DNA of 64,000 nucleotides. It comes from Myxococcota bacterium. Lineage in GTDB: Bacteria; Myxococcota_A; Polyangia; HGW-17. The notes under the pieces are model-generated. The model saw only the letters and a program-made list of their open reading frames with translations. It did not search any database and had not been told where the DNA came from. Shown in pieces: positions 5,233 through 55,831 of this stretch. Location: positions 2,575 to 66,574 of the forward strand of contig JAHJMN010000048.1 of the NCBI GenBank assembly GCA_018821305.1, given 5' to 3'. A program made the position numbers and the translations under genes. Each line of letters opens with the position of its first letter. Position 1 is the first letter of the stretch.

Positions 5233-5299
5233 CTTTTTACCTCATTTATTGTTTGCATTCTTGCAATCAACTTTTTATATTGTAATCCGGAGAGGAACA

Positions 5300-7047: not shown

Positions 7048-9279
7048 ATGCGTTTTTTATTTTCATTTTCACTTATTGTACTATTCACGGTCTCTTCCTG
7101 TAAAAATAAAACAAACGAACAAAATGGAAATCCGTCAACAACTCGGTCCGAAAAATCCCTCAAATCATCTAAAAAGACCTCGAAGAAATCTCCCAATACT
7201 GCGGTCATAATGGATTGGACAAAAGTCCCATCCGGAGAAGGTCAATGGCCCTGGGCGGATCTTTCCGGAATGGATTCTGAAGAACTGAAGAGACGTGGTT
7301 TTAAAATTAATCTCAAAGAGTTCTGGTTCAATGGAAAAGGAATTGCAAAATCTGTCGTAGGACTTCCGGGTTGCAGTGGTTCTTTTATCTCTGCAGATGG
7401 TTTAATTTTAACAAACCACCATTGCGCTTATGGCATCATCCAGAAGAACAGTACTGCTGCTTCAAACCTGCTTGAGAATGGATTTACCGCTCAGTCAAAA
7501 AAAGATGAACTTGACGGTAAAGGAATGAATATTTGGGTTTTTGGCAAGCAAGTGGATATTACAAAAAAAATTGTAAGTGGATTAGAAAAATTGACAGATG
7601 ATTATGCAGTGGGGAAAGAAATTGAAAAAAGAGTAAGCGCTGAAATTAGCGAATGCGAAAAGGATGGCACGTCCCGATGCCAGATAAGCAGAGAGAATAA
7701 AGGACTTCGGTACATTCTTCTTCGCAATTTCCTCATTCGGGACGTCAGACTTGTTGCCGCACCTCCCAAAAGTATAGGTGAATTTGGTGGCGAGGTTGAC
7801 AATTGGAGGTGGCCCAGGCATACTCTGGATTTCACAATTCTGAGAGCGTACGTTGCTCCAGATGGAAAAACTGCTTCTTACAGTAAATCCAATGTTCCTT
7901 TTAAACCTGAATCATGGCTAAAAATTGATAACAATGGACTTAATGAAGGAGATCCTATAATGGTAGTCGGTACACCTTACAGGACGAACAGATATGCCCT
8001 TTCTTATGAGGTTGAACATGCTCTGAGCGTTTATTACCCCGTGAGGGAGCGTATTTTTGATAGCTGGATAAAAACTATTGAAATTGCAGCAGTGAAGCCC
8101 GGTAGCCGTATTGCCTACTCAACCTGGGTTAAGAGACTTAATAATGGACTGACCAATGCCAGAGGTATGATAGCTGGTTTAAAGAGAAACAAAGTACTGG
8201 AAAATAAAAAAGAAATTGAAAATAAATGGAAAAAATGGGTGAAAAACTCAAAGAATGAACAGTGGATTGATTCATTTGAAAACCTCAAGAAAGGCCATAA
8301 AAAATACAGCGAAGATGAAAAATCACTTCTTATCAATTATACAGTGACTGGAGTTACTCCTTTCAATTTAGCTGTAATATCGCTGATATGGCAAAGAATG
8401 TCTCTACTCCCTGACACGGAGCGACTTCCAGGATTTCAAGAGCGTGACAAAAATTTAATTCTTTCAAGATTAAAGAATTCAATTGCTTCGTACGATCCGG
8501 AAGTTGAAACGGCCGTCTTTCTCAATTTTTGTTCAATTAATCCGCAGACCCACCCTCTGTTTGAAAAATCACTAAAAATTGACAGGAAAATTTTACAAGG
8601 ACAGTTTCAACGGACTTCAACACTTAAAGTTAAGGATATCAGTGAAGTATTAACAACAGATTTTATCAAAAAAAATGAATCAGATCCGTTATTTAAGTAT
8701 GCAAAAGAGCTTGAAGTACATTATTTCAAATATTTACAGAATCTGACATCTCTAAAAGGATTCAATCAGAAGTTCCGTGTTCCATATCTCCAGAGTCTAG
8801 TAAAATTTCTTGGTAAAAAATATTATCCCGATGCAAATGCATCACCCAGAGTAAGTTTTGCTCACGTTGCCGGCTATATTCCTCAGGAAGGAGTTTTACA
8901 TACACCATGGACAACGATTTCCGGCTTGATTGCAAAAGAAACAGGGCGATGGCCATTTGCAATACCTGGCTCCCTGCGTGCGGTTCATTCAGATACAGTA
9001 AAAATGACACCATTCCGGGACAAAAATCTACTTGATATTCCTGCTTGCTTCCTTTCAAACGCTGATACAACGGGGGGCAATAGCGGTTCTCCTGTACTTA
9101 ATGCCTCCGGGGCATTAGTTGGGATTAACTTTGATCGTGTATATGAGAATATCGCTGGAGACTTCGGGTATAATCCTGCATATTCCAGAAACATTTCAAC
9201 TGATATCAGGGCTATTTTATGGTACTTAAAAGAAGTTCAAAAGTGGCCCAATGTAAATGAATTGATATCTGGAAAATAG
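7048..9279 (+). CDS. S46 family dipeptidyl peptidase lipoprotein (DPP11-like)
   Basis: Lipobox VSSC; GCSGSFIS..GLILTNHHC; DNWRWPRHTLDF; catalytic DTTGGNSGSPV; FDR at the S1 determinant. Confidence 0.92.
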   Translation: MRFLFSFSLIVLFTVSSCKNKTNEQNGNPSTTRSEKSLKSSKKTSKKSPNTAVIMDWTKVPSGEGQWPWADLSGMDSEELKRRGFKINLKEFWFNGKGIAKSVVGLPGCSGSFISADGLILTNHHCAYGIIQKNSTAASNLLENGFTAQSKKDELDGKGMNIWVFGKQVDITKKIVSGLEKLTDDYAVGKEIEKRVSAEISECEKDGTSRCQISRENKGLRYILLRNFLIRDVRLVAAPPKSIGEFGGEVDNWRWPRHTLDFTILRAYVAPDGKTASYSKSNVPFKPESWLKIDNNGLNEGDPIMVVGTPYRTNRYALSYEVEHALSVYYPVRERIFDSWIKTIEIAAVKPGSRIAYSTWVKRLNNGLTNARGMIAGLKRNKVLENKKEIENKWKKWVKNSKNEQWIDSFENLKKGHKKYSEDEKSLLINYTVTGVTPFNLAVISLIWQRMSLLPDTERLPGFQERDKNLILSRLKNSIASYDPEVETAVFLNFCSINPQTHPLFEKSLKIDRKILQGQFQRTSTLKVKDISEVLTTDFIKKNESDPLFKYAKELEVHYFKYLQNLTSLKGFNQKFRVPYLQSLVKFLGKKYYPDANASPRVSFAHVAGYIPQEGVLHTPWTTISGLIAKETGRWPFAIPGSLRAVHSDTVKMTPFRDKNLLDIPACFLSNADTTGGNSGSPVLNASGALVGINFDRVYENIAGDFGYNPAYSRNISTDIRAILWYLKEVQKWPNVNELISGK

Positions 9280-34761: not shown

Positions 34762-35057
34762 AAGAAAGCTCCATATTCACAGCGGTAAGTGTATGCCACT
34801 TGATGATAGTGCTTATGTCAGATATACAGTTGAGATCCCCGAAAAAAGTCCCCGGCATTTGGTCTGAAATCTAACTGCGAGCACTAAAAACAAGCATAAA
34901 CAATAAAAACAATGAGTTCCGACTAAAATGACATGAAGTACCAATCAAGTCGGATGGGGACTAAGAAAATTTCAGCAAATGGACTATATTAATACCAGTG
35001 TAAAATTACCAGTATTTTTACTTGTTTCATGATTCAAACTGACCTATTTTCTTGTAC

Positions 35058-36158
35058 ATGACTGAAGAAACTCATACCAACACCGTTTGTTTTTATGATG
35101 ATGTTTTCCTTGATCACATTGCGCCCATTGATCATCCGGAATGTCCCGAAAGGCTCCGTAGTGTCATTCAGCAATTGGAAGATTCAGGAACCTGGGATAA
35201 ATTGGACATTAAAAAGCCTCCAAGGGCTGATACAGCCGAAATCGGTGTTGTCCACAAGCCTCAATACATATCCGCTGTTGAGCAGAAACTGATGCGTGGT
35301 ATAAGCGGTTATCTGGATCTTGGGGACACATATTACAGTCCAGGGACATACAACGCTGCTTTTATGGCCGTAGGGGCAGGAATCGAACTTTGCGCTGGCA
35401 TTATGGAATCAAAATGGCTTCGCGGACTTGCTCTTGTGCGACCACCGGGCCATCACGCAGAGAAAGATCAGGCAATGGGATTCTGTCTGTTTAACAATAT
35501 TGCTGTTGCTGCAGCATCAGTTATAAGTCGTTATCCGGATAAAAAAGTCGCAATTATTGATTTTGATGTACATCACGGAAATGGTACACAAAACATCTTC
35601 TATAAAGAAAGTCGGGTCCTGTACTGTTCTATCCATCAATCACCTTTATATCCTGGAACCGGACACATTGATGAAAACGGCTTTGGTGAGGCTTTTGGCA
35701 CAAATATAAATATTCCACTTCCCCCACTCAGCGGTGATGTCGACTGGGTTTACGCTATGATACATGGAATTATTCCAGTAATGGAAAAATTCCAGCCAGA
35801 CATCATTCTGGTCAGTGCCGGGTATGATGCTCATAAGTTGGACCACATTTCTTCTCACACAGTCACAGATAATGGATTTGCTTTACTTCATTCAATCCTC
35901 GTTAAAGCATCTGAAAAATTATGTGAAGGACGTATAGGTGTTTTCATGGAAGGTGGATACCATCTCGGGGCTCTGGCCACAGGCATGAACAACTTTGCTC
36001 AAACTCTATGTAATCACAACGTAATCACTAATTTTAATTTTGAAAATCAACCAGCCCATACGACTGTTGATACTGTTTCTAAAGTGATTGGATACGTCAA
36101 TTCCCGCTGGGATATCAAACTCAAGCCCGATATGGAAGTATCCTACGAACTCTACTGA
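35058..36158 (+). CDS. histone deacetylase family (class II-like) amidohydrolase
   Basis: HPECPERL, RPPGHHA, GFCLFNN, DFDVHHGNGTQ, SAGYDAH, EGGY. Confidence 0.93.
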   Translation: MTEETHTNTVCFYDDVFLDHIAPIDHPECPERLRSVIQQLEDSGTWDKLDIKKPPRADTAEIGVVHKPQYISAVEQKLMRGISGYLDLGDTYYSPGTYNAAFMAVGAGIELCAGIMESKWLRGLALVRPPGHHAEKDQAMGFCLFNNIAVAAASVISRYPDKKVAIIDFDVHHGNGTQNIFYKESRVLYCSIHQSPLYPGTGHIDENGFGEAFGTNINIPLPPLSGDVDWVYAMIHGIIPVMEKFQPDIILVSAGYDAHKLDHISSHTVTDNGFALLHSILVKASEKLCEGRIGVFMEGGYHLGALATGMNNFAQTLCNHNVITNFNFENQPAHTTVDTVSKVIGYVNSRWDIKLKPDMEVSYELY

Positions 36159-36284
36159 AATCTGAGTAATACGATAGTATCCTATTTTCAAGAGAAGTTT
36201 CAGGTCGTAACCATTTAAAGAAGTATAATTCAATTACAATCCTGTTCCGGAAATTTTCCGGCTCTACTATCTTGTGCTTTGCTG

Positions 36285-36408
36285 AAAAAAAAGAATCGGC
36301 GGTGAATTAGAAATGGTTCGTTACTTTAAAGGAGAGATTGAATCCACCGCCGCATGGTGACGGATGCAGAAGGATTTTTTGAGGGAGGAGAGAACCAACT
36401 GCATCCAA
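36285..36408 (-). ncRNA. candidate two-hairpin sRNA with anti-SD loops
   Basis: Minus strand: stem GGATGCAG/CTGCATCC (loop contains TCTCTCCTCCCTC); stem CGGCGGTGGATT/AATTCACCGCCG (loop contains TCTCTCCT); then ATTC and T8. Confidence 0.6.
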
Positions 36409-36414
36409 TTTAAA

Positions 36415-36441
36415 ACATCGGCTGCTTTTTTGAGAAGTTGA
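36415..36441 (-). promoter_or_regulatory. candidate sigma28-type promoter for the sRNA
   Basis: Minus strand TCAA-N15-GCCGATGT, ending 8 nt before the first stem. Confidence 0.55.
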
Positions 36442-36494
36442 AAAAAAATAATTCTTTTTTTACAGATTTGTGTAGATTTACTGACTGGTGCATC

Positions 36495-37652
36495 ATGAAC
36501 ACAATACGACTTCTGATAATAACTATATTTTCAATCACATCATTACTTTCAATTTCCTGCAGAAATGACCCTGCGAAAACAAGAACTGAACCTGAAAAGG
36601 TTAAAAAAAAGCCCCCTCAGGAAGTTAGACCATCACCGGAACCGAAACCTTTTCCAGTTAGTAAAATTCAGAAAACCTTGAGTACGCAATCAAGTGAACT
36701 TATAAAACAATTTCAGTATACTGGAAAAATGGTTAAGTCTGACAAGTTTTGCCACCAGAACGGAGACTTCTTTTTGTGCTTGTCTGGTCATACAACACCT
36801 GAATCTTCATGGCACAAAATCCGAAACATGGTTATCACAACCTGGGATGCAAAAAAGAGCGATATCCACAAGGATCTTTTACTCACTCATGGTTTTCACT
36901 TTTCCGCTCGAAAAGGCGTCTTATCAAAATGTAAAGCAAGATCCACAGTCTATGGTGGATTAACACCTGTGTTGAAACCGTCCACTCATAAGGAAGTAGA
37001 AACTGTTTGGGTAGAATACCCCATTGATTCAAGTACAATTGAGCTCGTCTTTGAGTGTGAAAAAAAAGAGTATGATTTTAAATTAGAAATAACTCAGGCA
37101 CTTAAAGCTCAACTGATTGTTATACAAGAGGAAATAAAAAAACTTATTGGGGCTGCTTCGGAAAAAACGAAAAAAATGGAGGATCTACTTGATCGTACTT
37201 TTCCGATAACACCCCTTGCCACAGATGGTACGGTATCGAAAAATGTAAAGAAGATCATAGCACTACGAAATGCAACTATGGTTGCGTCATTTGTTCTTAC
37301 AATGCTCGACTGGCAGCTCAATTCTCTTGAAAAAAAGAAAATAGCTCCAACCATTTTTAAAATAAAATTAAAGCGATTCGCTGAAAAAGAATATAAATAC
37401 AGCAGAACCAAATTGGTTTTGATTCGTCGTTATATCGAATTAGCAATAAAAACTAATAAGAAGAACTGTATAAAACTCCGCAATCGCCTTAAAACAATGA
37501 AAAACACTGAATATGAATATGGCCGATTAAGCAGGAAGTACGGGCATCATTGCGTCATATATGATGCTGCAGAAAAAGATCTTTTTGAAATATCTCCCCT
37601 GTTTGAATTTATTGAAAAAAGGCGTAAAGGCTGGATTAAGTTTGAATTTTAA
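36495..37652 (+). CDS. hypothetical basic lipoprotein
   Basis: ATG 36495; lipobox LSISC; Pro/Lys linker; helical C-terminus. ORF track starts at 36438. Confidence 0.7.
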   Translation: MNTIRLLIITIFSITSLLSISCRNDPAKTRTEPEKVKKKPPQEVRPSPEPKPFPVSKIQKTLSTQSSELIKQFQYTGKMVKSDKFCHQNGDFFLCLSGHTTPESSWHKIRNMVITTWDAKKSDIHKDLLLTHGFHFSARKGVLSKCKARSTVYGGLTPVLKPSTHKEVETVWVEYPIDSSTIELVFECEKKEYDFKLEITQALKAQLIVIQEEIKKLIGAASEKTKKMEDLLDRTFPITPLATDGTVSKNVKKIIALRNATMVASFVLTMLDWQLNSLEKKKIAPTIFKIKLKRFAEKEYKYSRTKLVLIRRYIELAIKTNKKNCIKLRNRLKTMKNTEYEYGRLSRKYGHHCVIYDAAEKDLFEISPLFEFIEKRRKGWIKFEF

Positions 37653-55746: not shown

Positions 55747-55831
55747 AATGATTCCTCTCCATACGGTATTTCAGGACATTAACTGAATAGTTCCACCATG
55801 CTCTGGTTTCCTGTGTTTAGTTGCTTTTGTT

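Follow-up and report, generated by a model that had tools for sequence, protein, structure and literature searches.

The minus strand of the window (the whole 64,000-nt stretch of DNA analysed here) carries, from position 36441 down to position 36285, a two-hairpin element that is conserved in three related genomes and independent of its neighbours. On balance, we favour reading this element as a stand-alone sRNA gene of about 120 nt that starts near 36408, is driven by a promoter of its own and finishes at 36285, in a U-run preceded by a hairpin of terminator-like form; the reading is drawn from the neighbour-independence of the unit, the concentration of constraint in its single-stranded loops, the stems that go on pairing despite sequence change, the G.U pairs that form only on the minus strand, and the U-run. 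What has been found is a real and conserved candidate for an uncatalogued sRNA, of familiar design in an unusual host, a member of the Myxococcota from a lineage for which we know of no cultured representative. An earlier reading of the letters of this DNA (the sequence-only reading) had proposed an unannotated structured RNA on this strand, with promoter-like boxes, two hairpins and a U8 run, and every one of these features lies where that reading had put it. The homologue search that it had advised found the RNA in a second genome of the same genus (G001, the genome containing the window being G000), and a third copy was found in the metagenome run X2. The features of the element and its flanking genes are as follows.

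35052-36158, plus strand: histone-deacetylase (HDAC)-family gene (PF00850).
36495, plus strand: probable start codon (ATG) of a lipoprotein gene, with a signal peptide ending LSISC and no Pfam family.
36441-36438, minus strand: -35-like box TCAA, a partial match to the sigma-28 TAAA (TTAA in G001).
Minus strand, from the sequence: 15-nt spacer between TCAA and GCCGATGT.
36422-36415, minus strand: -10-like box GCCGATGT (ACCGATTG in G001), with a conserved CCGAT core.
36406-36399 with 36369-36362, minus strand: 8-bp stem of hairpin 1, GGAUGCAG with CUGCAUCC, from the fold; the hairpin is 45 nt overall.
36394-36379, minus strand: UUCUCUCCUCCCUCAA, an anti-Shine-Dalgarno motif within the 29-nt loop of hairpin 1.
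Minus strand, from the sequence: 9-nt linker between hairpins 1 and 2.
36352-36341 with 36308-36297, minus strand: G+C-rich 12-bp stem of hairpin 2, CGGCGGUGGAUU with AAUUCACCGCCG; the hairpin is 56 nt overall.
36337-36328, minus strand: CU-rich stretch UCUCUCCUUU within the 32-nt loop of hairpin 2, poorly conserved (CCCCUCCUCA in G001).
36325-36315, minus strand: conserved motif of loop 2, AGUAACGAACC (AGUAACAAACC in G001; consensus AGUAACRAACC).
Minus strand, from the sequence: AUUC between stem 2 and the U-run.
36292-36285, minus strand: U8 run (U6 in G001), the tail of the terminator-like structure, where the RNA probably ends.

The element sits within a 336-nt gap that separates the two plus-strand genes. 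There is no minus-strand gene downstream of it in the window, and it is therefore not a leader; no gene lies upstream of it on its own strand. The HDAC stop codon and the U-run are separated by 130 nt of dispersed repeats, for which BLAST finds copies elsewhere in the genome (about six of 36193-36290 and about ten of 36161-36204). Hairpin 1 begins after 8 nt downstream of GCCGATGT, and the stem of hairpin 2 includes eight G-C pairs and one G.U pair (36344 with 36305), in agreement with the claim of the sequence-only reading that a G-U pair of stem 2 forms on the minus strand only. Both the window and G001 have, on the transcribed strand, a G+C-rich stem with a U-run after it, as in an intrinsic terminator. 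As a terminator hairpin 2 is atypical, its 32-nt loop being unusually large, and it was not called by a simple terminator scan, which permits loops of 3-8 only. Neither strand of the element holds a small ORF that is conserved between the window and G001.

The homologue in G001 was found by BLAST at 71% identity, over the RNA body only, and it scores 56.7 bits (E 8e-11) with a covariance model built on the single window sequence (R1). The 13 nt of loop 1 (UCUCCUCCCUCAA) are identical letter for letter in the two copies, which also have in common the UCCGUC that follows stem 1, AGUAAC-AACC in loop 2, and the U-run. In G001 hairpin 1 is 40 nt long and has a loop of 20 nt; for hairpin 2 the figures are 47 and 25 nt. 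In the same place as stem 1 of the window, G001 forms an 11-bp stem of its own (CGGGAAACAGG with CCUGUUUUCCG) that includes one G.U pair, and the sequence of this stem differs between the copies except for two shared basal G-C pairs. The core of stem 2 (GCGGCGGUGGA with CACCGCCGA) is shared; of its 12 pairs in the window, nine are identical in G001, two are changed, one of them on both sides (UA to AU) and the other on a single side (GU to GC), and a gap leaves the outermost without a partner. In a model-based alignment of the two copies all 35 of the 35 pair cells are standard, and two of the 20 pairs are changed on both sides. Upstream, an xCCGAT box lies 15 nt downstream of TTAA. The genes that flank the G001 copy encode a prolyl-oligopeptidase N-terminal domain and RCC1 repeats, and no similarity was found between these genes and those flanking the element in the window; conservation thus extends over the unit that begins with the promoter-like box and ends with the U-run, and not over the neighbourhood.

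The third copy comes from a bioreactor metagenome of a different study and belongs to a relative that is about 90% identical. Over 36287-36582 (296 nt) its contig aligns with 31 differences, and it keeps the lipoprotein neighbour; the match stops inside the U-run, at 36287, and the downstream repeats are unmatched on that contig. Among the differences listed, two fall within 36323-36412; the stretch 36413-36510 has 18 (Fisher p 2.5e-4), and the HDAC coding end has 20 over 184 nt (p 0.016). The listing covers positions more than about 36 nt from the end of a piece, and the count therefore takes in the 5' two-thirds of the RNA. One of the two changes, A36404>G (minus strand), converts an A-U pair of stem 1 to G.U, where the plus strand would have a C.A mismatch. 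No change in the loop-1 motif UUCUCUCCUCCCUCAA is among the differences listed, and the -35 and -10 boxes are unchanged, with three spacer positions (36431-36433) altered between them.

Beyond these copies the element appears to be confined to a narrow group. BLAST of 41 relatives recovered it from two genomes, G000 and G001, the R1 model gave clear matches to the same two among 14 genomes of the family, and model R2 matched two of 23 genomes of the order. A marginal R1 match in a further genome, G005 (18.6 bits, E 0.72), consisted of a single unrelated-looking hairpin and was rejected. Exact-pattern scans of metagenome and genome collections yielded 39 + 39 loci, 76 of the 78 without an R1 match; one locus (L099) repeats the G001 match, with the same span and score, and is counted once, and another (L080) is a true alphaproteobacterial cuckoo locus, to which we return below. 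Two checks that the sequence-only reading had advised came out less favourably. Rfam scans of the window at gathering and at permissive settings returned nothing relevant and placed no family above threshold, and covariation in the two aligned sequences, whose stems do pair, is not formally significant (values as high as those observed arise in 113 of 500 shuffles) because only three copies are available, all of one genus-level lineage.

The upstream boxes suggest that the RNA may be transcribed from a sigma-28 (FliA)-type promoter, which would tie it to late flagellar expression; we regard this as a close call and lean slightly towards doubt. G000 is flagellated (nine flagellin-domain matches with E <1e-17, plus FliA), and the sigma-28 gene that the sequence-only reading had said should be sought is encoded in both genomes, FliA (TIGR02479) having a curated cut-off of 189.6 bits and scoring 220.2 in G000, where it lies at C172:1700-2353, and 218.6 in G001. 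FliA over cut-off and the sRNA co-occur in the same two of the 14 family genomes, a weak association because these are one lineage. The CCGAT core of the -10 box is kept at the same place in all three copies. In the window the box GCCGATGT matches the sigma-28 consensus GCCGATAA at six of eight positions, with the CGA core present, and the same octamer recurs in other TAAA-N15-xCCGAT sites of G000. G000 shows a clear signal of sigma-28 type: between its genes, TAAA-N16-CCGAT was counted 36 times versus 5-18 at eight other spacings, and matches to an MCP, a dCache-HAMP protein, MotA and a single-domain receiver are among those of the 20 ORFs downstream of such sites, eight of the 20 being without a Pfam family. 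A second intergenic TAAA-CCGAT peak was seen at N12 (31). In each species two of eight flagellin genes have TAAAGTT[TA]-N11-xxCGATxA upstream. The promoter claim of the sequence-only reading therefore stands as to the presence of FliA and the conservation of CCGAT, but it is weakened by the -35 region, where TCAA(CTTC) (TCAACTTC) in the window and TTAA(TATT) (TTAATATT) in G001 each match TAAAGTTT at five of eight positions, and by the intergenic frequency of T[CT]AA-N16-CCGAT, which is not enriched (18 versus 12-33 at other spacings).

These shortcomings are what would be expected if the sRNA were real but read by the housekeeping sigma factor or by another alternative one, with no flagellar link, and we consider this a reasonable possibility, if a doubtful one. 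The -35 deviates at position 2 in both species, unlike the flagellin promoters of both, which keep TAAAGTT[TA] exactly, and the form that the box does take shows no spacing-specific enrichment. A further sigma factor resembling FliA is encoded by each genome (185 and 191 bits), FliA of G000 having a paralogue at C125:22606-23259, and each has several other sigma-70-family matches. Moreover, by the usual consensus forms of extended -10 and ECF-type promoters, TGtTTTAAA (36417-36409) is readable as an extended -10 element and AAC-N16-CGAT loosely resembles an ECF-type promoter. However, both of these readings are absent from G001, a start after the TTTAAA hexamer would land within stem 1, and a sigma-70 promoter scan found no site at the element; CCGAT, on the other hand, is the sole conserved block containing G+C in the A+T-rich upstream region of the three copies, and lies at a fixed distance from hairpin 1.

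The strand of the element is not decided by folding energy. For the minus strand the fold energy is -33.9 kcal/mol (z -4.5), a value equalled by none of 200 shuffles, and the plus strand folds about as well (-37.6 kcal/mol, z -3.4); since both strands fold well, it is the U-run and the G.U pairs that set the strand. In both the window and G001, it is only on the minus strand that stem 2 has a U-run after it, and G.U pairs exclusive to the minus strand occur in the window, in stem 1 of G001 and in X2. Neither is the element marked out by its promoter-like pattern, which is not significant when taken alone (0.19 expected per window; 19 of 100 shuffles hold one); it rises above chance because of its conservation in G001 and in X2. 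Comparable folding of the plus strand, together with the dispersed repeats that abut the element at 36161-36290, could be taken to mean that there is no RNA gene here at all, only a conserved DNA element or the remnant of a mobile repeat in which the hairpins are accidental. We attach little probability to this. G000 and G001 each have one copy of the element, which is for that reason not a mobile repeat; its boundaries coincide with the promoter-like box and the U-run, its sequence conservation is carried by the loops and not by the stems, and the minus-strand-only G.U pairs run against it as well.

Returning to the sRNA gene that we favour, loop 1 reads as the reverse complement of an extended Shine-Dalgarno (SD) sequence, GAGGGAGGAGA. 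Of the 2734 ATG-ORFs, 934 (34%) have GGAG 4-20 nt before them, internal control sites giving 142 (5%); for GGAGG the shares are 12.5% versus 0.7%; with SD sequences so heavily used in this organism, occlusion of ribosome-binding sites by loop 1 is the most economical mechanism. GGAGAGG, which the sequence-only reading had named as a ribosome-binding sequence of the window before 5300 and 55746, is found at 5289-5295 (plus strand) and 55754-55760 (minus strand). The RNA probably dampens the translation of some messages through pairing of loop 1 with sequences of this ribosome-binding-site type. Our current working hypothesis is that loop 1 (UCUCCUCCCUCAA), open and CU-rich, would pair in trans with the GGAGG-type SD regions of some mRNAs, and that this pairing would block ribosome loading. 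It would do so independently of Hfq, like the C-rich-loop sRNAs of other Hfq-less bacteria; neither Hfq nor DUF1127 (CcaF1-type) has a match in G000, the genome being 97.7% complete. Hairpin 2 would mainly terminate transcription and stabilize the RNA, and would carry AGUAACRAACC as a second single-stranded motif.

The sequence-only reading had seen two anti-SD loops, of which only the first holds up. Loop 1 keeps its 13 nt without a change, but in loop 2 little of the CU stretch is conserved (AUCUCUCCUUU in the window versus AUCCCCUCCUCAC in G001), so that the idea of two seeds is weak, and the part of loop 2 that is conserved, AGUAACRAACC, is not SD-like. Nor did the target prediction that it had recommended succeed: duplex scans, which were noisy when run over all 5' regions, and searches for exact complements found no target shared by G000 and G001. 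At ribosome-binding sites, exact complements reach 10 nt at most, which is ordinary for a genome rich in SD sequences. The best pairing with a flagellin of G000 covers the SD to the AUG of a sigma-28-driven flagellin gene (C22:6595-7005) at -23.6 kcal/mol, a value reached by eight of 3934 5' regions; the pairing is not kept in G001, where the orthologue stands at the 12th percentile. Similarly, a site in flhA (FHIPEP, C172) pairs in G000 only and not in G001. Three other candidates were set aside. An exact 13-mer match at C67:24490 lies inside coding sequence, and a 16-mer at C141:37987 is not a target because, lying in a minus-strand gene, it has the same sense as the sRNA. Loop-loop kissing of UGGUUC (loop 1) with GAACCA (loop 2) was dropped as weak in G001 (-1.7 kcal/mol, 21% of shuffles, against -8.5 kcal/mol, 0.6% of shuffles, in the window).

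That AGUAACRAACC equals the anti-SD motif in conservation, that no specific conserved mRNA target was found in the two genomes, and that loops of 29 and 32 nt are unusually large would also accord with an RNA that binds a protein or the ribosome, be it as a decoy or sponge for a binder of the CU-rich loop or of AGUAACRAACC, or as a mimic of the 16S rRNA 3' end. A sequence search of the assembly found no 16S rRNA 3' end. We think such a role improbable, given that no partner is indicated (the lack of DUF1127 and Hfq matches again counts here) and that, in the families described in the cuckoo survey, CU-rich loops of this kind use SD pairing (PMC4615179).

Action in cis, by interference or duplex formation, with the RNA serving as an antisense to read-through from the HDAC gene or to the 5' leader of the lipoprotein gene, would suit an element that is flanked on both sides by plus-strand genes and complementary along its whole length to any plus-strand RNA that crosses 36285-36408. 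No plus-strand terminator with a U-run was seen 3' of the HDAC stop codon, and the X2 relative retains the lipoprotein neighbour. This too seems very unlikely to us, because the neighbours are unrelated in G001, so that it is the RNA that has been conserved and not its would-be partners, and the conserved parts are single-stranded loop motifs, typical of the seeds of trans-acting RNAs. As for the terminator of the HDAC gene, which the sequence-only reading had itself raised against its proposal, the element is ruled out in that capacity, its U-run being on the wrong strand and the G001 copy having no HDAC gene beside it.

The design of the trans-acting sRNA that we prefer recalls the cuckoo family (CcsR/ar14/NfeR1), described as having from two up to four hairpins side by side, with CCUCCUCCC in every loop (PMC4615179). 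Members named in that account include CcsR1-4 / RSs0680a-d of Rhodobacter sphaeroides and NfeR1/ar14 of Sinorhizobium (RF02344, RF02791), and the 2015 survey places the family only in 78 alphaproteobacteria among 2,680 genomes (PMC4615179). The window RNA shares with these the adjacent hairpins, an anti-SD CU-rich loop, variable stems, and a final G+C-rich hairpin with a U-run, and in hairpin number both the window and G001 agree with the family. They depart from it in the loops: loop 1 has UCUCCUCCC, which is eight of the nine letters of CCUCCUCCC, in both copies, and loop 2 has no such motif (UCUCUCCUUU in the window, CCCCUCCUCA in G001). The family matcher, as described, limits hairpins to 24-50 nt and loops to 9-27 nt (PMC4615179); G001 passes, whereas the loops of the window copy (29 and 32 nt) and its hairpin 2 (56 nt) exceed these limits. 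The setting differs as well, in that CcsR RNAs follow a DUF1127 gene, occur in tandem and are bound by Hfq, whereas the element is single-copy with its own promoter and no upstream gene, and in that the cuckoo hosts are alphaproteobacterial and the window host is a member of the Myxococcota.

Model searches in the two directions gave a mixed picture of this relationship. The R1 model matched the triple cuckoo locus of Aliishimia ponticola (L080) at 23.9 bits (E 0.004), and the top Rfam matches of the G001 copy, on the right strand, were ar14 (22.7 bits) and CcsR1 (16.5 bits), for which the gathering thresholds are 58.8 and 65.3. The window copy had no match to the cuckoo Rfam models at E<=10. 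A true cuckoo control locus also fell under the gathering thresholds, at 38.9 and 31.5 bits, which means that the gathering test is insensitive. To judge from these comparisons, the RNA may well act in a cuckoo-like manner, but as a member of the family it fails, and convergence appears at least as likely as shared descent.

Other C-rich-loop RNAs provide looser parallels. RsaE/RoxS are C-rich-loop sRNAs of Firmicutes. The likeness to the Firmicutes RNAs lies in Hfq-independent pairing of C-rich loops with G-rich ribosome-binding sites, as predicted here; they differ in sequence, fold and lineage, and no homology is to be expected. RNAIII, with its UCCC loops, is a C-rich-loop RNA of the same group as summarized in the cuckoo survey (PMC4615179). 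The sRNA Pxr and the candidate MXnc1 of Myxococcus xanthus, which is without Hfq, are described as contacting mRNAs near the SD (10.1101/2025.09.11.675593). The window RNA has the same phylum label, a genome in which Hfq was likewise unmatched and, if our reading is right, SD-proximal pairing; it differs from Pxr in that Rfam gave no match to any family at the thresholds used, Pxr included if it is in Rfam.

Sigma-28-dependent sRNAs have been described in E. coli (UhpU, MotR, FliX and FlgO; PMC10578931) and in Campylobacter jejuni (CJnc170/FlmR; PMC11187230), and, if the CCGAT promoter is real, the window RNA would resemble them in being co-induced with the late flagellar genes. The E. coli RNAs are UTR-derived and Hfq-linked, with MotR and FliX pairing inside coding sequences, and the sigma-28-dependent RNAs have no sequence or structural likeness to the window RNA, for which FliA dependence is a prediction. 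No flagellar target common to G000 and G001 was found. It is nevertheless tempting to speculate that a cuckoo-type RNA exists outside the Alphaproteobacteria, without DUF1127 or Hfq, driven by FliA and feeding back on flagellin (C22:6595-7005) or flhA; we think this full combination unlikely. If true, translational control would be linked to the final step in assembling the flagellum, and this in a flagellated bacterium whose phylum is better known for gliding. If the RNA is expressed, it would in any case add one more uncatalogued sRNA family, and would be an instance of an anti-SD-mimicking hairpin loop arising or persisting beyond the Alphaproteobacteria without the usual helper proteins. 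Should the sigma-28 link also hold, it would offer a simple stand-alone case of late-flagellar riboregulation, which has been described recently and in a few model pathogens only. The prediction defines a precise transcript, with its start near 36408 and its end at 36285.

Two FliA-like sigma factors are encoded in each of G000, the source genome of the window, and G001, the same-genus genome with a homologue of the candidate small RNA, and these two, of the 14 genomes of the family, are the only ones with FliA matches above the curated cut-off. The first gene listed forms part of a flhB-flhA-flhF-flhG-fliA row.

G000 C172:1700-2353, FliA-like sigma factor, 220 bits
G000 C125:22606-23259, FliA-like sigma factor, 185 bits
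G001 C72:92393-93046, FliA-like sigma factor, 219 bits
G001 C84:34014-34667, FliA-like sigma factor, 191 bits

Good matches to TAAA-N15-xCCGAT, exemplified by TAAAGTTTGTTTTTCAAATACCGATGT, were found at five places in G000 with no same-strand gene downstream within 500 nt to 15 kb. Additional non-coding RNAs under sigma-28 control may start from these candidate promoters.

C122:28348-28372, minus strand, TAAA-N15-xCCGAT site
C109:28565-28589, minus strand, TAAA-N15-xCCGAT site
C33:19577, TAAA-N15-xCCGAT site
C158:28100, TAAA-N15-xCCGAT site
C204:846, TAAA-N15-xCCGAT site

Between genes, genome-wide in G000, TAAA-N12-CCGAT (n=31) is almost as common as the sigma-28 spacing N16 (n=36), an abundance that may reflect a repeat family.

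Two families of dispersed repeats fill the interval from the stop codon of the HDAC gene to the U-run of the small RNA (window 36161-36290). The match of a contig from X2, a metagenome run containing a ~90% identical relative, ends exactly at their start, which suggests that the repeats were inserted in a lineage-specific manner.

36193-36290, repeat family 1, ~6 further copies in the genome, 80-88% identical
36161-36204, repeat family 2, ~10 further copies in the genome

Complementarity to loop 1, the anti-Shine-Dalgarno loop of hairpin 1, extends over 9 nt at the GGGAGGAGAUGCAC start regions of a repeated family of small ORFs (~90-105 codons) in G000, and these starts are preceded by a G+C-rich hairpin.

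C84:10832 and C84:12110, small ORFs with GGGAGGAGAUGCAC starts
C131:327, C131:3612, C131:6717 and C131:7440, small ORFs with GGGAGGAGAUGCAC starts

A 16-nt match (chance expectation ~0.002) at G000 C141:37987-38002, inside a 432-codon minus-strand ORF, was rejected as a pairing target, the stretch being identical in sense to the loop-1 motif.

Two tandem units of ~205 nt each with very strong folds (-88 and -83 kcal/mol) were also observed at G000 C8:13460-13870, possibly representing another locus for C-rich small RNA, in addition to the one in the window. Each unit has an unpaired CUCCUCCCCCC stretch followed by a long terminator-like hairpin, and on the opposite strand a sub-threshold match to the Rfam family Acido-Lenti-1 (RF01687; 30.9 and 29.6 bits, threshold 37).

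In Aliishimia ponticola, positions 7240-7540 of locus L080 are a textbook cuckoo/CcsR locus, in which three tandem two-hairpin units with CCUCCUCCCU in their loops lie downstream of a short ORF and share one terminator at the end. This locus scores under the gathering threshold for both Rfam cuckoo/CcsR families (38.9 versus 58.8 and 31.5 versus 65.3).
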